Source: a virus (lineage: Duplodnaviria; Heunggongvirae; Uroviricota; Caudoviricetes). Taken from it: 12,110 nt of DNA. The translations under genes were made by a program, and so were the position numbers. The stretch spans positions 1-12,110 of IMG/VR virus record IMGVR_UViG_2778261454_000009. One strand, 5' to 3'. The notes under the pieces were generated by a model, which was given only the letters and a program-made list of their open reading frames with translations, was not told the origin of the DNA and did not search any database. Positions 1-12,110 of the stretch are shown one piece after another (positions within the stretch are counted from its first letter, which is position 1; every line of letters starts with the position of its first letter).

Positions 1-1194
1 ATGATCACCGACACAAAGCTCAGGAAGGCGCTCGGCAAGAAAAGAGATGATATCGAGATTATTTCTGATTCGCACGGGCTCAACGCCAGAATCAGCCAGG
101 CCGGAAAAATATCATTTTTCTATCGGTATCGCTGGGCCGGTAAAGCGGTAAAACTCAATGTTGGTGATTATCCTGCAATGAGTATCACCCAGGCAAGAGA
201 GCGTCGCCAACAATTCAGAAACTGGTTAACTGAGGGACTGGATCCGCGAGAGCAGGTGAAGCTGGATAAGCAGACCCGACAGGAAGCGATGTCCGTTGCC
301 GAAGCGTTCAATTACTGGATTGAAAGGCACTGTATCGCTAACGGGCTAGTTAAAGTCGATTACTATCGCCAGGTGTTTGAGAAACATATCGCCGAACCGA
401 TGAAGAATGTCAAAGTCGATAACACAGCGAAAATGCACTGGATCAACGTCTTCGATTCTATAGAAAGCAGGGTGATGGCTCATTACATGCTTTCGCTGTG
501 CAAACGGGCGTTTAGGTTCTGCGTTAACAGAAGTGTGATCGCCTCAAACCCACTCGAGGGATTACTGCCATCTGATGTCGGGCAAAAGCCTAAAAAGAGA
601 ACTCGCAGGATGGACGATGACGATCTGCGCAAAATCTATCAGTGGTTGAAAAGCCATATGTCGATAGAGTCCGTTTTCCTGGTGAAATTTATTATGCTTA
701 CCGGATGCCGTACGGCTGAGATTCGACTTAGTGAGAGATCATGGTTTCGATTGGATGATAATGAGTGGGTCGTGCCTGCGGGCAGTTATAAAACTCGGGT
801 ACATATTAGAAGGGGACTCTCAGACGCCGCCGTTAACCTGGTCAGAAATCACCTCAAGAAAATAAACACCAATCACCTGGTGACTTCACAACGTAAAATT
901 GATGGCGGGATCAAAGATTCGCCCGTTCATTCACCTGTGGCATCCAATTACGCCCGTTCTATTTGGAATGGAACAGGTATGGCAGAGTGGTCGCTTCATG
1001 ATATGAGGCGGACGATAGCCACAAATCTCTCTGAGTTAGGTTGCCCGCCGCACGTAATTGAAAAGCTGCTCGGGCATCAGATGGTGGGGGTTATGGCGCA
1101 TTACAACCTTCATGACTATATCGATGATCAGAAACACTGGCTCCGCGTTTGGCAGAGCCATCTTGAAGAGATCATCGGAGAGCCCTTCAGTTAA
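1..1194 (+). CDS. int: Tyrosine site-specific integrase with N-terminal arm-type DNA-binding domain
   Basis: 397-aa ORF from ATG at 1. N-terminal arm-binding-like motif (FFYRYRW...[13 protein letters not shown]). C-terminal catalytic boxes [14 protein letters not shown] and LGHQ...MAHYNLHDY give the R-H-R-Y signature. The window starts at the start codon, so promoter and att site are not visible and the true start could lie upstream. Confidence 0.9.
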
Positions 1195-1388
1195 TTTATC
1201 TTCTTTTTATCCTCCCACTCTTTGATTGACTCAGAGCGCCAGCGGTTAGGGTTGCCGGGCCAGTCAGGGGGTGGGAACGGGCATACGAAGCCCCGAGGCA
1301 TTGTGTCTGCACTTTGCCATGACCAAAGGGTTTTGCGTGAAATTTTGTAGCGACTGGTCAGGTCTGACGTTACCAAAATATCATCCAT
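1191..1388 (-). CDS. AlpA-family HTH protein, putative excisionase/regulator (Rac ydaQ position)
   Basis: HTH-like core [20 protein letters not shown] and C-terminal [14 protein letters not shown] resemble the phage AlpA/Xis family (from memory). The ORF track extends to 1433 but that codon is TTG with a poor RBS. The in-frame ATG at 1388 is preceded by GGAGAG at about 4 nt. Its stop overlaps the int stop tail-to-tail. Confidence 0.6.
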
Positions 1389-1429
1389 AGCTCTCTCCAG
1401 TTGCCCGTTCGGGCCATTCAAAATCTTTT

Positions 1430-1672
1430 TCAACCAACCTGCCCGGGCAGGGAGCGGAGACGGCGCATGCCGGTCATCGCTGTGGCCACGTAGCTCGCCT
1501 TTCGGTTCACCACCTCCACCCAGACTTTCACGCCTTCAACCTTCACCGTATAAGTCTCTTTCATCTTGCTTCGCCCATAGTCGCCATATGTTTGCAAGTG
1601 AGCTTCCAGCGCGATGTCGCATGCTTGGCGAGCTAAAGGTGATTGCTTACTTCCTCGATTGATCAGTCGCAT
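1430..1672 (-). CDS. Hypothetical small protein (ydaC/ralR position of Rac-like prophages)
   Basis: 80-aa ORF with ATG at 1672 preceded by AAGGAGA, lying in the leftward operon between the recT-like and xis-like genes. No recognisable motif. Confidence 0.5.
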   Translation of the reverse strand: MRLINRGSKQSPLARQACDIALEAHLQTYGDYGRSKMKETYTVKVEGVKVWVEVVNRKASYVATAMTGMRRLRSLPGQVG

Positions 1673-1710
1673 ATAATCTCCTTGAGGGAGGGTTACCCCT
1701 CCCGGTCTCG

Positions 1711-2829
1711 TCAGGCCACGTATTCCGGTTTCATATCCGCCAGGGTGATGCTGAATTGATCGTGCAGTTCATCGCCTAAGTGACGCTTTGAAGATGCAAG
1801 CATGCGCTCGGCTTCAGCGAACCGTTCGGATGCATGCGGCTCGTCGGGCTGGGGCAGGGATTTAATAGCCTCCTCAACCTTGTTGCGTGCATCCACTAGG
1901 TAATAACGCTTTACGGCTTTGTTTTTCAGCTCGGTGAATAGTGCGGATCCCAGCGTAGCTTTCGCCGTTTCAATGTCGGCACGCAGCGATTTGGCGCTAT
2001 CCACGTCCTGAGCAGATTCGATGCGTTCGCGGAAATCATCGGCAAGAGAGTCGACATTTACCGACGATTCCTGTGCGCTTTGCGTGGTTGTGACGGTGTC
2101 ACCTGAGATATCAGCCAGGCTAACGCGTTGCGGCGTTGGGTTGATCTCTTTTTCTGTGCGCTGTTCAATCTCATCAGGGGTGTACACACCAAGAACAACT
2201 GCAGGGCAATACAGGCGCGCCCAGTATTTGAGTGCCAGATAAGCGATCTGCTGTTTCGGGTTTGATACCCAAAGTGGAGAATTACGTGTGATTACGCTGG
2301 AGAGGAAAACAGGCTCTCCCCAGGTGATATCACTTTCACCGCGAATAACGGCACCTACCCGTACCGACAGTCCTTGTTCATCAGCACTTTCCCAACCGCG
2401 TACCATTTCTTTCTTGTCGTACGTCCCGCCACCTTTCGCAGGCTTTTTAACGGTTATCTCGCGGCTGCTGGCACATTTCGACCAGTCGCCCTCGTACTCA
2501 TAGTGAAAGCGGCCAACGATGGCGTTTGAGCTGGAGATCACCGCATTAACCAGTTGCGCTTCGTATCCCAGGACACCGTTAACCAGGTGCGTCTTTTGCG
2601 CCACGGCGTAAGGGTTCATACCCCACTGCATCGCCTGCATGATGATGGCCATGCAGTCTGCCGGATTGCCGCGGAGGTGCTCAGGCACCGTTACGGCTGC
2701 CTGTGCCATCAACCCGGCGACAGACTGAAGCTGGGTTAAAGCCTGCACGTTGAAAATGGCATTGCTGGCTGAGATCGTGTTTGGAGTCTGCTGTTCAGCG
2801 GTTACGATATTCGTGTTTTCCATCATCAT
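1711..2829 (-). CDS. recT: RecT/Red-beta superfamily single-strand annealing protein
   Basis: 372-aa ORF immediately downstream of recE in the same orientation (6-bp gap). Region ...DCMAIIMQAMQWGMNPYAVAQ...LGYEAQLVNAVI resembles the conserved Bet/RecT core (compare lambda Bet ALLIVANQYGLNPWTKEIYAF). AAGGGG RBS before a triple ATG. Family assigned from motif plus recE-recT synteny. Confidence 0.7.
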   Translation of the reverse strand: MMMENTNIVTAEQQTPNTISASNAIFNVQALTQLQSVAGLMAQAAVTVPEHLRGNPADCMAIIMQAMQWGMNPYAVAQKTHLVNGVLGYEAQLVNAVISSSNAIVGRFHYEYEGDWSKCASSREITVKKPAKGGGTYDKKEMVRGWESADEQGLSVRVGAVIRGESDITWGEPVFLSSVITRNSPLWVSNPKQQIAYLALKYWARLYCPAVVLGVYTPDEIEQRTEKEINPTPQRVSLADISGDTVTTTQSAQESSVNVDSLADDFRERIESAQDVDSAKSLRADIETAKATLGSALFTELKNKAVKRYYLVDARNKVEEAIKSLPQPDEPHASERFAEAERMLASSKRHLGDELHDQFSITLADMKPEYVA

Positions 2830-2834
2830 TCCCC

Positions 2835-5800
2835 TTATGCCTGAGTACGCAGCGCTTCAAGGCGGCGCAGGTCGAAGTCGTTCAGTTCGTCGGTGTAGTC
2901 AGCAGTGATTGGCGCTGGCCATTCACCTGTGTCGAATCCGGTTGCGATATTGCGCATCGCTTTGCGGTACTCGAGCATACCCAGCTCCAGTAGTTCAGCG
3001 GATGCCTCGATGATGGCGATCCAGTGGTAGTTCTCGTCTTTGTTGACGAAAATCCAGAAGAACTGGTCCAATGCTGCGGTCTCGCAATACATGGCGGCGC
3101 TCAGGTGGTAATCACGGTCGATGATTTCCCGGTGCAGTTTGGCGCGCAAACCTTCCTGTTTAATGTTCCACATGCTGATGGTTTTCAGGTCGGCACCGAT
3201 GCGAACGCCGTCCAGGTCGATCTCCAGATCAGGACGAACGCGGACTTCCAGACCGGTTTCGTCGTCAAAGCCAAAGTAGCTCACCTCAACAGCGCGGCTC
3301 GGATGCTGAAGCAGCATCCCGGCGGTTGGGTGTGCCAGTAATGCCGACTGAATAGCCAGCGCGGTGCTCAGTTGCTGACGGGTGACCAGCACTTTCCCTT
3401 GCGGATTCTCACGCCAGGCATCCAGCAGTTCGTCGGCAACGACGGCGTCCGGATTAACAGACTTCACGGTCTGGATCAGATCCGCTTTGGTACCGGACAC
3501 TTTCAGTGGTTGGGGCTTCTGCGCCTCCTGTGCAACCAAGTCAGGATTGATGATTGCCAGTTGCTCGAGTAACGCATCACGGCTACCGCTGGTTTTCACC
3601 TGTGCTGGCAGAGTGGCGTTGTATTCCTTGATGCAGGCTTTCATCGCCGCTGCGGTCTGCTTCTGGTCCGCTTCGATACGCTGATACTCTTCAGGAAGCG
3701 ACATATAGCTCTGACCAGTTTCCTCGACTGAACCACCCAGCGGCACCTGTGCTGGCAGAGTGGCGTTGTATTCTTCGAGCAAGGCTTTGATCTCATCTGC
3801 ACTCAGCAGCGCTTGCAGACCTGCGTTGTAATCATCGATAAACGCGCGGATCGTTGCCGTCGTGGTGAATGCGCCTTCCGGAATTACCGGTTCAACGCTG
3901 AATTCGGCATCCAGCAGTTCGGGCTGCAGCGCCAGCGCATGCACCAGGTTTCCCATGTCGAGCACCGGTGAGCGTTCTTTGACGATTGTCTTGGCGACGT
4001 GGCGCGCATTAAAGTACATCAGGCTAACTCGGGCATCTTTCACCTGCGTGGAGCTGATACCGTTGGCGGCGTGGTAAACCTCGTTCGGCAAACCTTCATA
4101 ACGACCTGGCTCGAAGTAAGCGGGATACACGGCTACCGGTTCGTCAGTTTGTACTTCTGGTTCGTTTTGTGCCGCAACTGGCTCAATTTGGTTTACAGAA
4201 TCGCTATTTTGGGCGACAGAATCCGCATTCTGGTTTACATCGGCTTGCTGGCTGGTATGTGACTCTTCACCAGTTTCCAGACTGCTTTCGCTTGACTGCA
4301 CTTCATCACCAGCATGTTTTTCATCACTGACAGTTTCTTCCATCTGCACATGGCTGGTGGTGTCCTCATTAACTGGTGAACGGTCATCTGTTTGTGTTTG
4401 TTGATCGCCCATCAGGCCATCAATGGAGAATACGCCGTTGCCCATGTTGGCGATTTGTGGCTGTTTAGCATCTGTTTTCTGCTCTGCAGCGACCTGCTCA
4501 TTAACCTCATTTTCCCAGCTGACGTCCGGCGCATGACCAGCATCAGCCAGCGTTTCTTCTGAGGGGTTTGAGTGGTCATTTTCGGTTAGATTGGCATTGA
4601 TATATGCCCGCAACCGCCCAGGAAAGTTAACCAATTCGGATGATGTGCCGCGGATGAGTGCAAAGATGGCTGCGCGTGAATAGTCCAGGATGCCAGCGGT
4701 TTTGCGCAGCGCCTCAGACCATTCGCTGAACGGACTTTCTTTCTTGCTGACAATCTCTTTAGCGCGACGGTAGACCCCACCAGGTATGTCGTAGATATTG
4801 AAATCCATTGGCAAGGTGGCCAGCGCAATTTCAACATCCAAAGTGTCCAGTGTGTGGACATAGTCGGTATTACGATCGGTCTTATTTCCACCGCCAGCAT
4901 TGGTTTTGACGTCAGTACGTTGAATCTGCGCAACGCGGTTACCTTTCTGCCATTCCTTGGCCAGCAGGCCACGGTCGATGTAATCAGTGTTGAACCACAC
5001 AGTCAGGAACTGGATAACTGTTGCCAGCTCCGGTTTTTTACCGTCGACAGGGAAGACTTTCTTAACAGCATTCACGACTTTATGAATATCGTGCTCAATG
5101 GCTTTTTTGAATGCTTCCACATTCTCAGCAGCCAGCAGCAGGTTCTGGATGTACGTGTCATCAGTGTCCATCTCAAGGCGGACAATCTCGTTTTTCTGCC
5201 CAGCGTCGATGTGATAGAGATATTCACCATCACCGATGAACTGAGCCAGTACGCGCTGACGGAATGGCAGGGTGGCTACGACGATCAGGTTCGGCTGATC
5301 TGGCTGCTGAGATTGTTCTTCGGGACCGACTTCATCACCAACGCTGGTGGTTTCAGTTTTGAGCAGAGGAAACTTTCCACTGCGCCAGTCTTCAACCAGT
5401 TGATTGCGATCACCTGCTTCTGCGTTCACCCAGTCAGACATGAAAGCAGCGATCACTTCAGGTTCATGCTCTTCACCCTGTTCGAAGATGTCTTTAATCG
5501 CCTGAATCATTTTCCACTCAGCATTAAGACTGAGTTCGCCAACTTCAGGAACATCATTTTTAACCTGCAGCAAGTTCTGGAGATAGGTATTGCTTTCGTC
5601 CAGTGACATTTCGCTGGCAGCCAACTGCTGCTCTTTAGTGACGTGGGTTTGGTATTTATCGTTCATCAGATGGACGGCAAAGCGGACCGCTGGAGTACGG
5701 TTTTCAACCGGGACAATTTCGGACGCAGTCGCATCTTCAACGATTACGGTCGGAGTAGGTGTGTAGGGGGCGTCAACGGAACCAGTAGACACACCAGCGG

Positions 5801-6074
5801 CTTTTGGCAGCCAGGTGCGCCCATCGTCCTGAAGCTCGTAGCGATCACACCAGGTAAAATCAACTTCACCTTCTTTCGGCAGGCCGTCGACAACTGGGAA
5901 ATCAGTGCGAATCGGTTTGGCGTAGTCCTTACCCCGACCTGTTTCGATACCTGCATCTTCCAGCGCAACATCCAGCATCAGATTGGCGCGAGCCTCGGTT
6001 TTAGCAGTGAACCAGACCACTGCATCTTGCTTTCCGGATTTCTGAGTGGCTTTAACCACATTAAAGAATTCCAT
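2835..6074 (-). CDS. recE: Exodeoxyribonuclease VIII (RecE-like), enlarged form with acidic low-complexity linker
   Basis: 1079-aa ORF. N-terminal TDFPVVDGLPKEGEVDFTWCDRYEL and central KVFPVDGK...WFNTDYIDRGLLAKEWQKGNRVAQIQRT...NAGGGNKTDR...LDYSRA blocks match my recollection of E. coli Rac RecE ([51 protein letters not shown]...NAGGGNLTDR). GAGGAT RBS before ATG at 6074. Confidence 0.85.
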   Translation of the reverse strand: MEFFNVVKATQKSGKQDAVVWFTAKTEARANLMLDVALEDAGIETGRGKDYAKPIRTDFPVVDGLPKEGEVDFTWCDRYELQDDGRTWLPKAAGVSTGSVDAPYTPTPTVIVEDATASEIVPVENRTPAVRFAVHLMNDKYQTHVTKEQQLAASEMSLDESNTYLQNLLQVKNDVPEVGELSLNAEWKMIQAIKDIFEQGEEHEPEVIAAFMSDWVNAEAGDRNQLVEDWRSGKFPLLKTETTSVGDEVGPEEQSQQPDQPNLIVVATLPFRQRVLAQFIGDGEYLYHIDAGQKNEIVRLEMDTDDTYIQNLLLAAENVEAFKKAIEHDIHKVVNAVKKVFPVDGKKPELATVIQFLTVWFNTDYIDRGLLAKEWQKGNRVAQIQRTDVKTNAGGGNKTDRNTDYVHTLDTLDVEIALATLPMDFNIYDIPGGVYRRAKEIVSKKESPFSEWSEALRKTAGILDYSRAAIFALIRGTSSELVNFPGRLRAYINANLTENDHSNPSEETLADAGHAPDVSWENEVNEQVAAEQKTDAKQPQIANMGNGVFSIDGLMGDQQTQTDDRSPVNEDTTSHVQMEETVSDEKHAGDEVQSSESSLETGEESHTSQQADVNQNADSVAQNSDSVNQIEPVAAQNEPEVQTDEPVAVYPAYFEPGRYEGLPNEVYHAANGISSTQVKDARVSLMYFNARHVAKTIVKERSPVLDMGNLVHALALQPELLDAEFSVEPVIPEGAFTTTATIRAFIDDYNAGLQALLSADEIKALLEEYNATLPAQVPLGGSVEETGQSYMSLPEEYQRIEADQKQTAAAMKACIKEYNATLPAQVKTSGSRDALLEQLAIINPDLVAQEAQKPQPLKVSGTKADLIQTVKSVNPDAVVADELLDAWRENPQGKVLVTRQQLSTALAIQSALLAHPTAGMLLQHPSRAVEVSYFGFDDETGLEVRVRPDLEIDLDGVRIGADLKTISMWNIKQEGLRAKLHREIIDRDYHLSAAMYCETAALDQFFWIFVNKDENYHWIAIIEASAELLELGMLEYRKAMRNIATGFDTGEWPAPITADYTDELNDFDLRRLEALRTQA

Positions 6075-6213
6075 GTGAGATCCTCATTTTTGGGTGTTAG
6101 AATCCCCGGACCATTGATAGCGCCCATTGGGTTAACTTTGGTTTTAATGTTGTTTCCGGTGTAACTTTGGTCGGTACCACCGGACGTAGATCCCGCCTTG
6201 CGCGGGTTTTACG

Positions 6214-6375
6214 TTAGCCTTCGTGAGCCATCTGGTCGTGCGAAGCGCAACGTTTGGAGCAATACTCTTTTTCTTTGCGCGCCAGCTGTGAGCCGTTGCG
6301 ATAGAGAAGGGTGCTCTTGATTACTTCCTCCGTTTTAACCGGCTTGCCGCAATATCCGCATTTCTTGTCTAACAT
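6214..6375 (-). CDS. Small zinc-ribbon protein (YdaE-like), 53 aa, absent from the ORF track
   Basis: Hand translation of the minus strand gives MLDKKCGYCGKPVKTEEVIKSTLLYRNGSQLARKEKEYCSKRCASHDQMAHEG, with a CxxC ... CxxxC cysteine pattern. GGAGGA lies 4 nt upstream of the ATG. It sits between the kil-position gene and recE, where Rac has ydaE. Confidence 0.6.
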   Translation of the reverse strand: MLDKKCGYCGKPVKTEEVIKSTLLYRNGSQLARKEKEYCSKRCASHDQMAHEG

Positions 6376-6386
6376 GACATCCTCCG

Positions 6387-6593
6387 CTAGTGGCTGAGTC
6401 CATGCCCCAGACCGTTCAGATAAACTTCAACCAGCAAATCCTTGGTGTAAGTCATTTCTACGCCGCGATGCAGATACAAACGTCCGCGAGCGTTAGCTGA
6501 TGCCGTCCAGGTTGAGTCTTTGTGTTTGACGAGCATCCCCGGCTGAACTGCGCCGCGGTTTACTGTCTGTGTACCGTAGTGCTGATGAACCAT
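6387..6593 (-). CDS. Small protein, first gene of the leftward early operon (KilR position by synteny)
   Basis: The ORF track's 116-aa version starts at a TTG (6737) with no usable RBS. The in-frame ATG at 6593 (MVHQHYGTQTVNRG...) is preceded by GGAGAA at about 6 nt and gives a 68-aa product. Function is inferred from position only. Confidence 0.55.
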   Translation of the reverse strand: MVHQHYGTQTVNRGAVQPGMLVKHKDSTWTASANARGRLYLHRGVEMTYTKDLLVEVYLNGLGHGLSH

Positions 6594-6845
6594 GATGTTC
6601 TCCAGTTTTTCTGAGTGAACTTCGCTGGTGGTGCCGCGGCGCTGATCTTCACGGTTGAGCGTTTTAACTCTGCAATTCACCACCGCGAAGCTCACTCTGT
6701 GCTTTGCCCTTGTCGCCAGGCTGGCGGAACGTTTCAAACCTACTGCGCGTTAATCTCACCACCTCATTCCGGTCTTCGTATGCCCCGGACGGCTACTTCG
6801 TGGGCTCCATGCCTGGGTGGTTCGTGGTGCGTCTTGGTGATTGCA

Positions 6846-6874
6846 TATTAAGCCTGAGACTTAAATCATGTCAA
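6846..6874 (-). promoter_or_regulatory. PL-like sigma70 promoter for the leftward operon
   Basis: Minus strand reads TTGACA (6874..6869), a 17-nt spacer, then TTAATA (6851..6846). The spacer and -10 contain the operator palindrome also found at the rightward promoter. Confidence 0.5.
6848..6864. promoter_or_regulatory. Putative repressor operator, 17-bp near-palindrome (OL-like)
   Basis: TTAAGCCTGAGACTTAA is the exact reverse complement of 9062-9078 and is itself a 14/17 palindrome. An additional half-site TCAGGCTTAATT lies at 6902-6913. Confidence 0.45.
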
Positions 6875-7015
6875 GCTCCAGGCGAAATGTGATTGTAAGT
6901 TTCAGGCTTAATTGTGATGTTCACCGAATTGCAGGCAAAAAAAATCCCGACGCTAAGGTCGAGATCGGGGACTTCGTGGCTGGGTGTTGGCGGCTGAGAT
7001 GGTGGGTGAGGGTGT

Positions 7016-7045
7016 AAAAAACCCGGCGCTGTGGCCGGGTTTTTT
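7016..7045. terminator. Bidirectional rho-independent terminator
   Basis: AAAAAA-CCCGGC-gctgtg-GCCGGG-TTTTTT: a 6-7 bp GC stem with a 6-nt loop, flanked by an A-run and a T-run. It starts 2 nt after the stop of the 34-aa ORF and separates the AT-rich unit from the PL-like promoter. Confidence 0.65.
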
Positions 7046-7047
7046 CA

Positions 7048-7152
7048 TTACTGCTGGTTAAATCCTTTCGGCGAGTGCTGCTGTTCTTTATTACCAAATT
7101 TTTGATTTACAATGATTTTATAAGCGTTATTGAGAGCTTGCTTTATAGACAT
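7048..7152 (-). CDS. Small ORF (34 aa) co-transcribed downstream of the HslV-like gene
   Basis: Hand translation MSIKQALNNAYKIIVNQKFGNKEQQHSPKGFNQQ. AAGGAG lies 6 nt upstream of the ATG at 7152, 17 nt after the upstream gene's stop. It ends 2 nt before the terminator and is AT-rich like its neighbour. Short ORFs are prone to false calls. Confidence 0.35.
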   Translation of the reverse strand: MSIKQALNNAYKIIVNQKFGNKEQQHSPKGFNQQ

Positions 7153-7169
7153 TAATATCTCCTTATGTG

Positions 7170-8474
7170 TTATTGACGATTAAAGTAGTTAGAGTTTAGC
7201 TCTTTAGGGAAGTAGTGTTTACGATTTACCCAAACAAATCCATCAACTTTTGATATCACAGCGACATCAACAGGCCCACCGACAGTTTCATAATCATGTG
7301 ATACTTTTCTTTTGAATGCAGTGATGTTCACTAATGATTCGGCCATATACGCAAGATCTGCCTTCCCAAGTGATTGCAACATCGATATCATTTTATTTGT
7401 ATGGTTATTAACAATATAGCTTTCAAGTTTAGTATCGTGATCTTGTAAAAGTACGTTTTTGAGTTCCTCAATTTCACTGGAGAAGTGATTGGCTAGTACT
7501 CCATTGTTCATTGCAGGGAAAATATTGCTAGAAACATAATGATTAAGCCGATCAAAAACTTCCTCTGTAAGAGTTCTGTTAAAATTAATGATGTTAGGGT
7601 TGCACCCATCAATGAAAGTTACTACTTCATCTTCTTGAGCAAATGGTATAACAAACCCCATATTGGTTACCTCATTATGGGATTTATTATCAATATTATG
7701 GATCATCAATTTGTTTTTAAAAATGCCGTAGATATGAAGAGTGCAAATGGAAGGGTAATATTCTTCCTCTCCATAACCTGTTATAACAATCCCTGAATAT
7801 GTACGACTAGCATGGACTTTGAAAATTAAATAAGTGGAATATAATATGACTTTTTCCATAAGCTCTTGCTGTATATTTTCACAGTTATCAAGAACAATAA
7901 TTGATGAAATGTATGGCGATATTAAATCTTGTATATATGCTAAAGCATCATTAAACTCTTCTGTATCAAACCCTTCGAAAAAGAGATTATTCCTTAAGAT
8001 TCCTATCTCTAAATCAAAGGCTTGCTTAACTATGTTTTGAAAAATAACATTGTCGAGTTCAACGGCGGGGTTCATTGTTAAATAGTTTACTACATTATTA
8101 TCATTAATGTATCTCATCAAACCTTTGAGGTTATCAACAACAAGGTTTATAACGCAAGCCTCTCTCATTTCATTTGTTATAAGGTCTGAGTTACCATTGA
8201 TGAATTTTACAAAGTCATTAACATATTCTTTAATGGTAGGGAAACTAGTTTTCCCCAATTGTTTTCTATAGGATTTAATTATAAGTTCCCACGGTGCGCC
8301 ACCCAGTGTCGCATTATTATAAATCATGATCCCCACGGGATGGTGTTTAGATAGTTCGAATAGTTTTTCCGCACTATTATTTATTTTTACTAATCTATTA
8401 TGCTCTGTGGTGACTGCAGAGTCAGCAGCAAGGGCGATTCCAGTATTATTTATTACAACAATCTCAGCTGTCAT
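7170..8474 (-). CDS. HslV/20S-proteasome-beta-like N-terminal-nucleophile hydrolase homolog with a large insertion
   Basis: 434-aa product from ATG at 8474 (the track's longer form from 8573 has no RBS). The ORF is about 33% GC. N-terminus MTAEIVVINNTGIALAADSAVT...NNSAEKLFEL parallels HslV [24 protein letters not shown]...KKVRRL and 20S beta [21 protein letters not shown]...KNCSKIHFI, with Thr directly after Met, Asp at 17 and Lys near 33-36. Mid-protein IVITGYGEEEYYPSICTLHIYG and C-terminal DYETVGGPVDVAVISKVDGFVWV resemble the corresponding T1-family strands. The GSG loop is not recognisable. Comparison is from memory, not a search. Confidence 0.6.
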   Translation of the reverse strand: MTAEIVVINNTGIALAADSAVTTEHNRLVKINNSAEKLFELSKHHPVGIMIYNNATLGGAPWELIIKSYRKQLGKTSFPTIKEYVNDFVKFINGNSDLITNEMREACVINLVVDNLKGLMRYINDNNVVNYLTMNPAVELDNVIFQNIVKQAFDLEIGILRNNLFFEGFDTEEFNDALAYIQDLISPYISSIIVLDNCENIQQELMEKVILYSTYLIFKVHASRTYSGIVITGYGEEEYYPSICTLHIYGIFKNKLMIHNIDNKSHNEVTNMGFVIPFAQEDEVVTFIDGCNPNIINFNRTLTEEVFDRLNHYVSSNIFPAMNNGVLANHFSSEIEELKNVLLQDHDTKLESYIVNNHTNKMISMLQSLGKADLAYMAESLVNITAFKRKVSHDYETVGGPVDVAVISKVDGFVWVNRKHYFPKELNSNYFNRQ

Positions 8475-8502
8475 TGCAAAACATCCCGTGTAGTAGTGAT
8501 AA

Positions 8503-8531
8503 ATATTAATTAAATTGATAGTTTTTTTCAA
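8503..8531 (-). promoter_or_regulatory. Candidate sigma70 promoter for the HslV-like unit
   Basis: Minus strand reads TTGAAA (8531..8526), a 17-nt spacer, then TAATAT (8508..8503), about 30 nt upstream of the ATG at 8474. Confidence 0.45.
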
Positions 8532-8615
8532 TCTAACATAAATGGCGGAATCACCCCCCAGTAAAGACATCATTGTCTCATGGGAACTAAAAATTCAGGA
8601 CAAACCTAAAGCGAT

Positions 8616-9002
8616 TCAGTCCCCCTGCGAGCGAATCCGCCCCTTCATGTACTTCTCATACAGCTCATCCAGTTCCTTAAGACGTATCGAAAAGATGCGG
8701 AGCATGTTCTGTTGCTCTTCTTCTGGAAGCTGGCGGTAGAGCTCAAGCAGGCGCTGTTCGTCCGGCTTAAGTCCGTCCTTCTCGCCGACATCCTCACCGA
8801 GTAACCAAGGCACAGACACGCCAGCTGCGTCAGCGACAGCGAGAGCTGATTTCTTGCTGATCACGCCTTTTTTAAACCAGCCGTTCACAGACTGCGGGGT
8901 TACCCCAGCAACCCTGGCCATATCGGATTTGGTCATACCGCGCCCGTTCAGCTCTGAAAGGCGTTCGACAAGTATCGGATTAAGTACGGTTTTCTCTTTC
9001 AT
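8616..9002 (-). CDS. CI-like immunity repressor, XRE-family HTH transcriptional regulator
   Basis: 128-aa ORF with a canonical HTH (MTKSDMARVAGVTPQSVNGWFKKG) and a helical C-terminal region. It is divergent from the Cro-like gene, with shared operators in the intergenic region. No obvious S24 peptidase domain, as in RacR/DicA-type repressors. Confidence 0.8.
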   Translation of the reverse strand: MKEKTVLNPILVERLSELNGRGMTKSDMARVAGVTPQSVNGWFKKGVISKKSALAVADAAGVSVPWLLGEDVGEKDGLKPDEQRLLELYRQLPEEEQQNMLRIFSIRLKELDELYEKYMKGRIRSQGD

Positions 9003-9050
9003 GGTTAGAAGAATAAGCCTTTTGCTTAAACTTGAAAATTCGCCTCAGGC

Positions 9051-9080
9051 TTGACAATAAATTAAGTCTCAGGCTTAATT
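9051..9080 (+). promoter_or_regulatory. PR-like sigma70 promoter for the rightward operon
   Basis: TTGACA (9051-9056), a 17-19 nt spacer, then a TTAATT/TAATTT -10-like element (9075-9081), followed by GGAG and the ATG at 9107. This is a mirror-image copy of the PL-like cassette. Confidence 0.5.
9062..9078. promoter_or_regulatory. Putative repressor operator, 17-bp near-palindrome (OR-like)
   Basis: TTAAGTCTCAGGCTTAA lies between the -35 and -10 of the PR-like promoter and is the exact reverse complement of 6848-6864. A related half-site CTCAGGCTTG at 9044-9053 overlaps the -35. Confidence 0.45.
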
Positions 9081-9106
9081 TGATTGTATTCAAATCGGAG
9101 ACAACG

Positions 9107-9325
9107 ATGAACGGGTTAACGAAAGCCATTAAGTCCGCTGGCACTGCAACAAATCTCGCAACCATGCTGGGCATCAAGCCGATGTCGGTCAGCCGCTGGA
9201 AAAACCGGTACCAGGGCATGGTGCCTGCTGATCGGGTCCTTCAAATCTACGCGGCTACCGGCGTAACTCCACACGAGCTGCGCCCTGATCTCTATCCAAA
9301 CCCAAGTGACGGTTTACCAAAGTAA
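9107..9325 (+). CDS. Cro/YdaS-like small HTH regulator
   Basis: 72-aa product from ATG at 9107 with GGAG 6 nt upstream (the track's longer ORF from 9032 lacks an RBS). HTH ATMLGIKPMSVSRWKNR and the HELRPD motif are typical of the YdaS family. It is divergent from the repressor. Confidence 0.7.
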   Translation: MNGLTKAIKSAGTATNLATMLGIKPMSVSRWKNRYQGMVPADRVLQIYAATGVTPHELRPDLYPNPSDGLPK

Positions 9326-9336
9326 GGAATGTAACT

Positions 9337-9876
9337 ATGCAATCACTTACGTATCAACAGAGTAACGGGTTCATTTCAGCAGCGCTGATAAATCGCGCTC
9401 AACCAAAACCGGGCGTCAGTTGTGGTGCCCTCCGTGATGCTGTTCGCGCCTGGTCAGCAGTAGCCGGGCAGGACGTTGTAACGGCCCTGATCGTTGAAGA
9501 GTGGCACCGGATAGGTGGCGAAGGTATCGACTTTCCGGCAGATCACAGCCGTGCCCGGCAGAAGCTGTTCCGCTTCCTGGATAACCATTTCAACAGCGAA
9601 CGGTACCGCGAGAACGTCCGCCAGCTGACGCCGGCAATCCTCGCTGTCCTGCCGATTGAATACCGCAATCGTCTGCTACCAGAAGACAACGTAATGGCTC
9701 GTCTGGCAAGGCTGGAGAAGGAAACCAGCGAAGCGAAGATTGCTGTCGCAATGGATGCGCCACGTCATCAGAAGCTGAAAGAGTTGAGCGAGGGGATCGT
9801 GGAGATGTATCGCGTTGACCCTGGGTTAACCGGTCCGTTGATGGAAATGGTGCAGATTATGCTGGGGGCTATATGA
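9337..9876 (+). CDS. YdaT-like protein (cII-like regulator / putative toxin YdaT family)
   Basis: 179-aa ORF 11 nt after the Cro-like gene, with AAGGAA RBS. The motif LTPAILAVLPIEYRNRL resembles the conserved PAILAILP segment I recall from Rac YdaT. Gene order matches ydaS-ydaT. Confidence 0.6.
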   Translation: MQSLTYQQSNGFISAALINRAQPKPGVSCGALRDAVRAWSAVAGQDVVTALIVEEWHRIGGEGIDFPADHSRARQKLFRFLDNHFNSERYRENVRQLTPAILAVLPIEYRNRLLPEDNVMARLARLEKETSEAKIAVAMDAPRHQKLKELSEGIVEMYRVDPGLTGPLMEMVQIMLGAI

Positions 9877-9960
9877 CCGGTTCAAAAATGGCGAAAGCCG
9901 CGGTGCTCGAACACCAACGGCTTTCAGGTGCAAAAACAGTGCGTAATTGCGGAGAACAGT

Positions 9961-10869
9961 ATGTCAAACACCGCTGAAATAATCAATTTCCCAAATAAAA
10001 CCGAACAACCGGGAGGTCGTATGGCCGACCTGTCGAACGGGTATACCAAGGTCGCTAACGAGATCCAACAGCTTAAGCCTCGCCTGAGACTGTCAGGCCG
10101 GGAATGGCAATGTTTTGAGGCGGTGATCTGGCTTACCTACGGCTGGAACAAGAAACAGGACCGCGTGACAAATACGGTTATTGCCGAGCTTACGGGCCTG
10201 AGCGATACGCATGTATCGGACGCGCTTAAGTCTCTCGCAGAACGCAAAATCATCTTTTCACAGAAGCAGGGCATGATGAAAATCGTCGGTGTAAACACTG
10301 ACCTTTCAGCATGGATTTTAGACAAACCGGAAACGGGAAGAAAATTCCCGAAAACGGGAAAATCCTTCCCGAAATCAGGAATAACCTTCCCGAAAACGGT
10401 AGACACCCAATACAAGAACAAGAACAGTATTAAAAGATCTTCGTCCGAGAATTCTGACGAATCCTCTGACGCACGTCTGAAGAAATTTTTATCAACTCAT
10501 CCTGAAGCTGCGGTCTACACACCATCCGGTGCGAAGTGGGGCTCTGCTGAAGACCTCGAGACAGCTAAGTGGATTTCCTCCAGGGTGAAGCTGATTAACC
10601 CAACCTGCAAAGCCCCGGACATGACCTCCTGGTCTAACACTGTTCGCCTGATGCGCCAGATAGACAACCGGTCGCACCAGGACATCTGCGCGCTGTATGA
10701 CTGGGCTAGCAAACACCACTTCTGGCAGACCAACATCCTGAGTCCCGAAAGCCTGCGTAAGCAGTGGGACAAGCTGACAATGCAGCGTAACGCCGGAGGT
10801 GAGCAGCGCGCTGTCAAGCCAGATCTGGACTTCAACAACACTGACTGGGCCTATGGGGTGATCCGATGA
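9961..10869 (+). CDS. Replication initiator, lambda O-like
   Basis: Start at ATG 9961 (GGAG 6 nt upstream; the track's start at 9928 is an upstream extension). MSNTAEIINF... resembles lambda O MTNTAKILNF, and ...LTYGWNKKQDRVT... matches O ...KTYGWNKPMDRIT. Iteron repeats are embedded in the linker-coding region. The stop overlaps the next start (ATGA). Confidence 0.8.
   Translation: MSNTAEIINFPNKTEQPGGRMADLSNGYTKVANEIQQLKPRLRLSGREWQCFEAVIWLTYGWNKKQDRVTNTVIAELTGLSDTHVSDALKSLAERKIIFSQKQGMMKIVGVNTDLSAWILDKPETGRKFPKTGKSFPKSGITFPKTVDTQYKNKNSIKRSSSENSDESSDARLKKFLSTHPEAAVYTPSGAKWGSAEDLETAKWISSRVKLINPTCKAPDMTSWSNTVRLMRQIDNRSHQDICALYDWASKHHFWQTNILSPESLRKQWDKLTMQRNAGGEQRAVKPDLDFNNTDWAYGVIR
10325..10403. 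repeat. Origin iterons: four ~21-bp direct repeats, each an internal inverted repeat, inside the O-like gene
   Basis: CCGGAAACGGGAA / TTCCCGAAAACGGGAA / TTCCCGAAATCAGGAA / TTCCCGAAAACGGTAG spaced at 21-22 bp, followed by a more AT-rich stretch (10405-10450). They encode the FPKTG peptide repeats. Architecture resembles lambda ori (TCCCTCAAAACGAGGGA x4). Confidence 0.6.
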
Positions 10870-11444
10870 AATCTCTTGCAGAGCAGATGCGTAACCACGA
10901 CCGCGAGCAGATGAGCCGCATGGCCCATAACCTGCCAGAGCAGTACCAGGAGTGCGCGCCGGTCGAGCAGGTGGCGCAGGTATTCAACAAGCTGTTCAAC
11001 GAGCTGCGCGCCGCGTTCCCGGCCAGCATGGCGAACTTCCGCACCCAGGAAGACCTGAACGAATTCCGCCGTCAGTGGCTGCTGGCGTTTCAGGAGAACG
11101 GGATCCACACCATGGCTCAGGTCGATGCCGGCATGCGCATTGCCCGCCGCCAGGAGCGCCCATTCCTGCCGTCGCCGGGCCAGTTCGTCGCCTGGTGCAA
11201 GCAGAGCGGCGGCGCGCTGGGCGTCAACGTTGACCAGGTGATCGCCGAATACTGGGACTGGCGTAACCGCTCGTTCGAATTCATCTCCAGCGAGCAATTT
11301 CCATGGTCGCAGCCGGTCATGTACCACATTTGCGTAGAATTGCGCCACCGCAGCACCGAGCGCCAGTTAACGCATGGTGAACTGGCACGCGAGGCAGGCG
11401 ATCTGCTGGACATGTGGGAAAGGCGCGTCACCGAGGGTATCTGA
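10866..11444 (+). CDS. Replication protein, lambda P-like helicase loader (short form)
   Basis: MKSLAEQMRNHDREQMSRMAHNLPEQY... closely parallels lambda P MKNIAAQMVNFDREQMRRIANNMPEQY..., and ...RRQERPFLPSPGQFVAWC... is shared. At 192 aa it is about 40 aa shorter at the C-terminus than lambda P (233 aa, from memory). Confidence 0.8.
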   Translation: MKSLAEQMRNHDREQMSRMAHNLPEQYQECAPVEQVAQVFNKLFNELRAAFPASMANFRTQEDLNEFRRQWLLAFQENGIHTMAQVDAGMRIARRQERPFLPSPGQFVAWCKQSGGALGVNVDQVIAEYWDWRNRSFEFISSEQFPWSQPVMYHICVELRHRSTERQLTHGELAREAGDLLDMWERRVTEGI

Positions 11445-11476
11445 TTATCTCCTGTGCCCACATTCCGTTTTGCCGC

Positions 11477-11502
11477 TTCTCCCAAACCAACCTTTTTTAT
11501 AA
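11477..11502. promoter_or_regulatory. Candidate hix/gix-like crossover site for the adjacent serine invertase
   Basis: TTCTCCCAAACC-AA-CCTTTTTTATAA has a 12-2-12 layout with an AA core and about 20/26 identity to hixL (TTCTTGAAAACCAAGGTTTTTGATAA) as I recall it. It lies 60 bp upstream of the invertase ATG. No partner site is visible in the window. Confidence 0.4.
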
Positions 11503-11561
11503 CCATCAAAAATCTGGTGATGCTTCGCCGTTTCTCCTGTTTTCATAACAGGAGAAATCCC

Positions 11562-12110
11562 ATGATTTACGGTTATGCCCGAGTATCAACAAACCACCAG
11601 GACACTGAATTGCAACTAACGGCGCTCAAGTCAGCGGGTTGTGAGAAAATTTTTGAAGAGCATGCCAGCGGGAGGAAATCGAATCGGCCGGTTCTAAAAC
11701 GGCTGATCGCCACTATGCAGCTGGGGGATGAACTGGTGGTCTGGAAGCTGGACAGGATAGGCCGCAACGTTCTGCATGCGCTGTTGATGTTCCAGCAGTT
11801 ACAGGAAAAGGGTATCAACTTCCGCAGTATTACCGATGGCGTGGATCTCAAAACAGCCAGCGGCCGCTATAACTTTCGTAACATCCTTTCCGCAACACAA
11901 TATGAATCTGATCTTAATAGCGAACGTACCTTAGCAGGGCTGGCCGTAGCCAGGGCAAAAGGGCGAGTTGGTGGTCGCAGGCCTAAGTTCACGGATGAGC
12001 AATGGCGGGAAATGGGGGAGCGGATGGCAACCGGTGAATCACGACAAAGCGTATCAAAAACGTATGGAGTAGGGCTCTCAACTCTGTATAAAAAGTTTCC
12101 AGCTAGCTGA
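11562..12110 (+). CDS. Serine DNA invertase, Hin/Gin/Pin/Cin family
   Basis: Start at ATG 11562 (GGAG 7 nt upstream; the track's start at 11454 is an upstream extension). MIYGYARVSTNHQDTELQ... has the catalytic-Ser N-terminus; LVVWKLDRIGRN and INFRSITDG match the resolvase core; the C-terminal HTH ends ...LSTLYKKFPAS (compare Hin ...LSTLYKKHPA). The window ends at its stop codon. Confidence 0.85.
   Translation: MIYGYARVSTNHQDTELQLTALKSAGCEKIFEEHASGRKSNRPVLKRLIATMQLGDELVVWKLDRIGRNVLHALLMFQQLQEKGINFRSITDGVDLKTASGRYNFRNILSATQYESDLNSERTLAGLAVARAKGRVGGRRPKFTDEQWREMGERMATGESRQSVSKTYGVGLSTLYKKFPAS

Follow-up and report, generated by a model that had tools for sequence, protein, structure and literature searches.

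What is a homolog of the proteasome doing beside the immunity repressor of a prophage? The question arises from a 12,110-nucleotide stretch of a Caudoviricetes virus (IMG/VR record IMGVR_UViG_2778261454_000009, positions 1 to 12,110; the whole stretch is called the window below), in which a gene of 434 codons and a stop occupies 7170..8474 on the minus strand. The original prediction, made from the letters alone, had singled out this open reading frame (ORF) as a horizontally acquired gene with the motifs of the T1 threonine peptidases, and had proposed that it might act in exclusion or abortive infection. We conclude with high confidence that the protein is a proteasome-fold N-terminal-nucleophile (Ntn) hydrolase with a Thr/Asp/Lys triad, and that, with a small gene behind it, it very probably travels as mobile accessory cargo. 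The pair is best explained, in our view, as a two-gene accessory (‘moron’) cassette complete in itself, which the lysogen would express and which would act against other phages; we give this explanation about an even chance of being correct.

The proteasome-like fold and its active site

In its predicted model the protein shows the alpha-beta-beta-alpha fold in four layers, made up of strands S1-S11 and helices H1-H4. In comparisons with the hydrolase, 20S beta and Anbu outscore connectase, and the more distant Ntn hydrolases NAAA, acid ceramidase and penicillin V acylase follow lower; Foldseek searches of the Protein Data Bank (PDB) yield the same families, and the best viral match is a phage ‘proteasome beta’. 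The structural part of the original reading was thus right. The signal in the primary sequence is fainter. A profile of the family run against PDB sequences matches Thermoplasma proteasome beta weakly and in register (E 0.8), the other matches being due to chance, as are those returned by phmmer for the hydrolase itself. The stretches in register are T-V-G-G-P-I-D-V-A-V-I-S-K-G-D-G-F-I and S-G-G-M-I-D-V-A-V-I-T-R-K-D-G-Y-V, and in the same weak alignment (E 0.8) the C-terminal motif falls on Thermoplasma beta residues 168-185, ‘SGGMIDVAVITRKDGYV’.

The motifs that had been lined up with those of the T1 peptidases are all present, and they are the most conserved parts of the family. This is seen when the window protein is aligned with 80 homologs, drawn from different species of many phyla; all conservation values given here refer to these 81 sequences. 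A threonine follows the initiator methionine immediately in 78 of the 79 sequences aligned at that position, D18 is found in 79/79 and K37 in 80/80; the corresponding minus-strand codons of the window are 8471-8469 (T2), 8423-8421 (D18) and 8366-8364 (K37). Conservation of at least 95% is reached by M1, T2, D18, S19, K30, K37, the glycines G228/G233/G235 and the block V398-G399-G400-P401-x-D403-V404-A405. The last of these belongs to an active-site-proximal motif near the C-terminus, E396-[TS]397-V-G-G-P-x-D-V-A-x-I-S-K409 (7248..7289, minus strand; at least 95% conserved), in which E396 is kept in 79 of 80 aligned sequences and T/S397 in all 80, and whose counterpart in 20S beta would, by its sequence, be the Asp166/Ser169-GG region together with strand S10. 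The context of K37, A-E-K-L-F-x-L, gives the local pattern K37-L-F-x-L, matched by K33-L-F-Q-I in Thermoplasma beta. A lysine ‘about 36’ had been noted, and the residue is indeed conserved, but its number is 37 and becomes 36 only once the methionine is removed.

The threonine had been proposed as the nucleophile because of its place next to Met1, a place that its near-invariance bears out. Methionine aminopeptidase is expected by its specificity to remove a methionine that precedes threonine, and E. coli HslV likewise has its threonine directly after the initiator methionine. In the mechanism that we propose, this enzyme would remove Met1 and expose Thr2 as the nucleophile, with Asp18 and Lys37 completing a triad of the Thr1/Asp17/Lys33 type.

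Such a mechanism places demands on the start codon. From 8474 the N-terminus reads M-T-A-E-I, while the longest ORF in the frame begins 33 codons upstream, at 8573, and it is this 467-aa form that RefSeq adopts as WP_225893418.1 at a 99.9% identical E. coli locus (L001 9671-11074), a model that would bury the N-terminal threonine. We take 8474 to be the start, as had been proposed for the 434-aa frame, since nearly all homologs among the matches listed (mostly 416-440 aa long) align from residue 1, M-T-A-E-I, since the sole PHROG match, phrog_5990 (unknown function), covers residues 1-434 end to end, and since a promoter-like site (8503..8531) lies between the two candidate starts. The RefSeq extension (8475..8573, minus strand), within which that site falls, is on these sequence grounds probably not translated, and the longer model is probably a start-site error.

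The core of the fold is interrupted twice, where the original prediction had seen a single insertion of roughly 180 aa. Insertion 1 (residues 96-222, about 127 aa; 7809..8189, minus strand) follows the core helices H1/H2 and is modelled as helices 101-134, 142-161, 171-192 and 203-218; insertion 2 (residues 293-368, about 76 aa; 7371..7598, minus strand) is a long helical hairpin between H3 and H4, with modelled helices 293-322 and 325-368. Both are conserved in length and hypervariable in sequence. Their mean column entropies are 3.09 and 2.92 bits, against 1.0-2.1 bits in the core, and none of their 203 columns reaches 95% conservation, compared with 46 of the 231 core columns. A relative with 81% overall identity is 90% identical in the core and 69% in the insertions, and for another close relative the values are 81% and 58%. 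Since the insertions occupy positions of ring and ring-ring contacts, a closed barrel is probably not formed. The versions found in Streptococcus and Enterococcus (L100 9274-10479; L106 8001-9209) are about 400 aa long with a shorter second insertion, and the family profile breaks into two matched stretches on them.

To what known group does such a protein belong? Among the 22 new proteasome homologs in the catalogue of Fuchs, Alva and Lupas (2021; PMC8665760), a pair of long insertions, one after H1/H2 and one between H3/H4, is described only for PMI-3 and PMI-4. PMI-4, the ‘proteasome homolog with multiple insertions’, is a large family (501 sequences at nr90; representative HDY66466.1) listed in Proteobacteria, Firmicutes, Actinobacteria, Bacteroidetes, PVC, Cyanobacteria, other bacteria, Euryarchaeota and phages (PMC8665760). 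The hydrolase has insertions at the same two sites and none between S3 and S4, and it shares the broad spread over bacteria and Euryarchaeota and the presence in phages; it is therefore likely to be a PMI-4 member. More than 6000 homologs are detectable, falling into more than 6000 clusters at 50% identity, with a patchy distribution over most bacterial phyla and archaea at 31-45% identity, and databases list the family under no name other than ‘hypothetical protein’. Given the fit of architecture and distribution, the fold assignment has probably been published already, with the function left unassigned. The earlier suggestion that the protein might be undescribed holds in that it matches no known defence family, but probably not for its proteasome homology. 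The authors of the catalogue considered that insertions of this kind should hinder ring and double-ring assembly, and they reported no genomic context or co-occurrence pattern that pointed to a function (PMC8665760), whereas our analysis finds a conserved small downstream ORF and a context of mobile elements and defence genes. New relative to the description of PMI-4 are the two-gene anatomy, the hypervariable character of both insertions, and the setting in prophages, satellites and defence islands.

The hydrolase is a divergent member of the proteasome/HslV superfamily (MEROPS T1). Compared with 20S beta, HslV, Anbu and BPH, it is twice as large, owing to its two helical insertions, lacks the GSG/Ser129 loop, has no match to PF00227 and no adjacent AAA+ unfoldase gene, and is encoded, along with a small coupled partner, by mobile elements. 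Identity with HslV itself was rejected: HslV is a compact subunit of about 175 aa with HslU adjacent, while the hydrolase has 434 aa and no AAA+ partner among the neighbours at 80 loci.

The small downstream gene and the bounds of the cassette

Does the hydrolase gene stand alone? It had been treated as a single gene, and a small coupled ORF behind it had been missed. This ORF, of 34 aa (MSIKQALNNAYKIIVNQKFGNKEQQHSPKGFNQQ), lies at 7048..7152 on the minus strand, begins 18 nt after the hydrolase stop, is preceded by a Shine-Dalgarno sequence AGGAG at 7164-7160 (minus strand) and is left unannotated by RefSeq. An intrinsic terminator at 7016..7046 (minus strand), a CCCGGCC...GCCGGG stem followed by a run of T, closes the cassette; its predicted fold has a free energy of -18.9 kcal/mol (z -4.1), and 0 of 200 shuffled sequences fold as well. 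At the other end, inside the AT-rich insert, stands the promoter-like site TTGAAA, 17 nt, TAATAT (8503..8531, minus strand), which is a consensus match only, at 9/12 positions, and which, if used, would exclude the start at 8573 that lies upstream of it. Two adjacent genes, one of them small, are thus found under one promoter-like site and one terminator, an arrangement like that of type II toxin-antitoxin pairs. Having a promoter-like site and a terminator of its own, the cassette could be expressed in a lysogen.

The small ORF is not confined to the window. The same succession of Shine-Dalgarno sequence, 35-codon ORF and terminator follows the homologs in Klebsiella (L090, 70% identical) and Tatumella (L002, 45%), and over the first 19 codons the window and the Klebsiella locus differ by seven synonymous-only and four nonsynonymous codon changes. 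At 97 loci, a small same-strand ORF starts no more than a few tens of bases from the end of the hydrolase gene, often overlapping the stop, and in 77 of the 97 it belongs to a family shared across loci. Its mere presence means little, as an antisense control also produced a small ORF of at least 25 aa in 72 of 96 loci; what counts as evidence is that its sequence is conserved and its position fixed. Three independent cross-taxon partner families can be told apart, with 40, 21 and 5 loci. The largest spans Proteobacteria, Nitrospirae, Planctomycetes, Firmicutes, Cyanobacteria, Actinobacteria and archaea, and combines a basic N-terminus with the motif S-x-x-E-[FYW]-x-x-x-[FY]-[FL]-P and a C-terminal helix G-x-x-L-A-x-x-S-L-x-K. 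Its hidden Markov model (HMM) matched 28 loci, each time on the hydrolase's strand and immediately behind it, and nothing else in 1.25 Mb of six-frame translation.

How the partner types relate to one another is less clear-cut. By hhalign, the Bacteroidota type (21 loci) is weakly related to the largest family, called type 0 (E 0.003), to which the short enterobacterial types show no demonstrable relation. The type found in the window gives E 0.0015 against that of Enterobacter and E 0.022 against that of Serratia. A single family for all of the small downstream ORFs was rejected, homology across the types being unproven by hhalign. The small partner protein has no Pfam family, and its predicted structure (pLDDT 77) shows two helices behind a basic, disordered tail. 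It carries a submitter's annotation in the records of a Streptococcus satellite and a Providencia phage. A look-up in reverse, starting from the partner, returned one pair overlapping by 4 nt with a 434-aa hydrolase, one partner cut by a contig end and one orphan. The orphan is 81% identical to the partner in a metagenome-assembled genome of Euryarchaeota and lies behind the gene for a type IIG restriction-modification protein of 1289 aa; a PLD-SNF2 helicase gene and an AAA_16 gene are found in the same region.

The module in prophages, satellites and other settings

The window is a Rac-like E. coli prophage, in which an integrase gene, RecT, RecE, YdaE and a kil-like gene are followed by the cassette, a helix-turn-helix (HTH) repressor, YdaS/Cro, YdaT, O, P and a serine invertase. 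The repressor gene (RacR/CI-like, 8616..9002, minus strand), identified by Pfam HTH_3 and by the RefSeq annotation of the 99.9% identical locus, directly precedes the cassette, with which it shares its strand, and is divergent from ydaS/ydaT, confirming the repressor-adjacent slot of the original prediction. The order recalls that of lambda, where rexAB lies directly downstream of cI.

Horizontal acquisition, also foreseen, finds agreement in composition and distribution alike. The GC content is 31-37% across the hydrolase gene and roughly 49-53% in the flanks, and the cassette occurs in only 13 of 5426 complete E. coli genomes. In megablast comparisons the matches of other E. coli Rac-like prophages end at about 7045 (H14, H15), and homology resumes at the terminator; in a related Rac-like prophage (E. 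coli 1368KP, L099 5553-6935) the slot between kil and the repressor is filled by different genes. They encode a coiled-coil-like protein of 211 aa, a protein of 101 aa and an additional HTH protein of the CI type, and no known defence family is matched by any of them.

Outside E. coli the module is found in many other places, and each of the 12 annotated contexts that we examined puts it within a mobile element or next to one. Three Klebsiella prophages carry it after a CI-like repressor, with replication and recombination modules that differ; in Enterobacter prophages and a Providencia phage it sits between antiterminator Q and the holin, and in Klebsiella prophages and Stenotrophomonas phages beside the holin. 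Prophages of Bacillus thuringiensis, Enterococcus faecium and Peribacillus have it after the endolysin at the prophage end, Serratia in an integrase-AlpA-primase island, and seven Streptococcus satellites at the cargo end. In Vibrio vulnificus it adjoins filamentous-phage genes (Zot) and a PLD-family gene. There (L096 2646-5297), the hydrolase and a 54-aa partner come after the PLD-family gene, which has PDC-S69 and DrmC-like matches, and a 107-aa ORF, all on one strand, and this lineage may have a larger operon. Within a collection of 50,697 phage records the family appears in 13, all of them temperate-type (prophage-derived or lambdoid) phages or satellites. With these settings in view, we are confident in regarding the module as mobile accessory cargo.

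Which genes keep it company? Among 150 neighbours, taken within two genes of the module in about 75 genomes of many phyla, the commonest are Eco57I, N6 and MmeI methylases, ResIII, GmrSD, Abi_2, Zeta toxin, HTH/S24 repressors and integrases, and a type IV restriction enzyme is present in the same accessory-gene region of B. thuringiensis. An all-against-all BLAST of the neighbours at 80 loci brought together integrases (8 loci), the small downstream ORF and an HsdM-like methylase (3 loci); no AAA+ unfoldase or other large conserved partner was found among the neighbours of these loci.

Two further parts of the window deserve mention. Between the cassette terminator and the kil-like gene, a good sigma-70-like promoter match (TTGACA, 18 nt, TAATAT; 6845-6874, minus strand) may, from its sequence, act as early-left promoter in this prophage. 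To the right of P (10866-12110) the prophage copy looks truncated or rearranged. The lambda-P-type replication gene has 192 aa here and 229 aa in a related prophage, the GC content is 0.61-0.63 at 10750-11500, and a serine recombinase/invertase gene (Resolvase and HTH_7; core from 11562, longest ORF from 11454) begins about 115 bases past P and runs to the window end.

Defence and its rivals

What could such a cassette do? In the scheme that we favour, the module would guard the lysogen, and hence the prophage or satellite, from other phages. The variable helical domain would be the specificity or sensor part and the conserved threonine active site the effector, cleaving or transpeptidating a host or phage protein. 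The second gene would encode a small (34-65 aa), basic, helical protein, translationally coupled to the first, which might restrain the enzyme or serve as its first substrate, as in toxin-antitoxin-like abortive-infection systems. We infer catalytic activity, an anti-phage function, a sensor role for the insertions and a regulatory role for the partner; an anti-phage role of the module seems to us evenly poised between right and wrong, and that the small partner acts as an inhibitor is unlikely, if worth entertaining.

There is precedent for the position. RexAB of lambda and SieB of Rac exclude other phages from a place next to the repressor, and what they share with the cassette is the genomic logic of a foreign gene that adjoins the immunity repressor, is expressed in the lysogen and differs from one related prophage to the next. 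The Gifsy-1 prophage encodes the single-gene defences HepS and GiPD474 (PMC13043305, PMC12724215). All of these proteins are unrelated to the hydrolase, RexAB being an ion-channel/sensor pair, SieB a membrane protein, HepS a HEPN nuclease and GiPD474 an ATPase, and none is an Ntn hydrolase. Abortive infection by a protease is known from Lit of prophage e14, a zinc metalloprotease. By analogy, the principle proposed here would be shared with Lit and with RnlAB and LsoAB, namely a hydrolase that stays silent until infection; RnlAB and LsoAB are moreover toxin-antitoxin pairs whose small labile partner is encoded downstream, as we propose for the cassette. Here too there is no homology to the hydrolase, since RnlA and LsoA are RNases and Lit belongs to the metalloproteases.

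Several observations weigh against this account and temper our confidence in it. Homology with the Pfam proteasome family has no backing from sequence profiles: Pfam, NCBIfam and PADLOC give no family match for the full-length hydrolase, Pfam none for four core-only constructs with the insertions deleted, and PF00227 (Proteasome), the profile from which a match had been expected, remains silent on both. An hhalign comparison of the family with E. coli HslV places M1-T2 and D18 in register, but at a non-significant E of 0.22. The GSG loop before H3, which had not been obvious to the first reading either, is replaced by an invariant F-A-Q (A279, Q280) with no serine, and position 53, the equivalent of Gly47, is Gly in 48 of 81 sequences and Asn in 25, the window protein among them. 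Catalytic competence is on these two counts not guaranteed. On sequence considerations, the backbone amide at position 53 could still serve the oxyanion hole, and the invariant E396-[T/S]397 may stand in for Asp166/Ser169; according to Fuchs et al. (PMC8665760), the superfamily is defined by the triad and Gly47 and not by Ser129/Asp166/Ser169. As to the partner, hhalign yields no support (E 0.75) for homology of the 34-aa enterobacterial protein of the window with the widespread 55-65-aa type 0, and the orphan in Candidatus Kuenenia stuttgartiensis (CP049055.1, L110 6001-6189) has no hydrolase within 6 kb. As to defence, the survey of neighbourhoods bore out the mobile setting, but defence genes are a minority of all neighbours. 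No characterised defence family had been recognised in the protein, and PADLOC-DB 2.0.0 agrees, with no defence-protein HMM matching at E values up to 10; the family, for which PADLOC has no model, has accordingly not surfaced in past defence screens. Our literature search found no experiment or phenotype for the family.

Could the cassette be an addiction module and nothing else? The hydrolase would then be the toxin and the small protein the antitoxin, together stabilising the prophage or satellite with no role against other phages. Two tightly coupled genes on mobile elements, in neighbourhoods where a Zeta toxin and a Panacea-domain protein occur, are what such a module might look like, yet simple addiction has no need of hypervariable, sensor-like insertions, and at some loci the gene adjoins restriction-modification or Abi genes while none of the immediate neighbours scanned is a recognised mobile-element gene. 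We consider pure addiction improbable. It also overlaps with defence, as many prophage toxin-antitoxin pairs prove to be defence systems.

The hydrolase might instead serve its carrier, degrading a host immunity protein or processing a regulator of lysogeny or induction. The restriction of its occurrences in the phage collection to temperate-type phages and satellites fits this, as does its place by regulatory (repressor, Q) or lysis modules. A protease working for the phage would nevertheless hardly be expected in at least four different slots and in both orientations relative to the phage operons, with its own promoter-like site and terminator in the window, at a rarity of 13 in 50,697 records, and also in satellites and by restriction-modification genes; such a role is improbable too.

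A third possibility takes its cue from connectase (MJ0548 and the Methanosarcina mazei enzyme) and casts the protein as a ligase or transpeptidase, whose threonine acyl-enzyme would be passed to an amine to modify a specific protein, possibly the small partner. Connectase has lost H1/H2 and carries a signature two-helix insertion between S3 and S4 (PMC8665760), while the hydrolase retains H1/H2 and has its insertions elsewhere, and both 20S beta and Anbu score above connectase; we hold this version to be quite unlikely. Least plausible, to the point of being barely tenable, is a housekeeping-type quality-control protease like HslV, Anbu or BPH that hitch-hikes on mobile DNA, which would share the superfamily fold and the triad but would sit oddly with the small number of E. 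coli carriers, the patchy, transfer-like distribution, the lack of an adjacent AAA+ partner, the hypervariable insertions and the uniformly mobile setting of the annotated contexts.

Returning to anti-phage defence, we may ask what it would mean if the family as a whole had this function. The broader proposal, of a widespread new class of two-gene anti-phage systems built from a non-barrel threonine hydrolase, phage-sensing insertions and a tiny gating partner, is tentative, and we would not yet bet on it. In practical terms, the RefSeq start, probably 33 codons too early, would hide the nucleophile, and the small partner, mostly overlooked by gene callers, offers an experimental handle as a possible inhibitor, substrate or adaptor. 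A full-text search of the literature found no paper linking proteasome homologs to phage defence. If the cassette is a defence system, an N-terminal-threonine hydrolase of the proteasome type would represent a catalytic principle not yet seen among anti-phage effectors, and the largest orphan proteasome homolog catalogued in 2021 would gain a function. The immune use of proteasome-type chemistry would then extend to bacteria and archaea.

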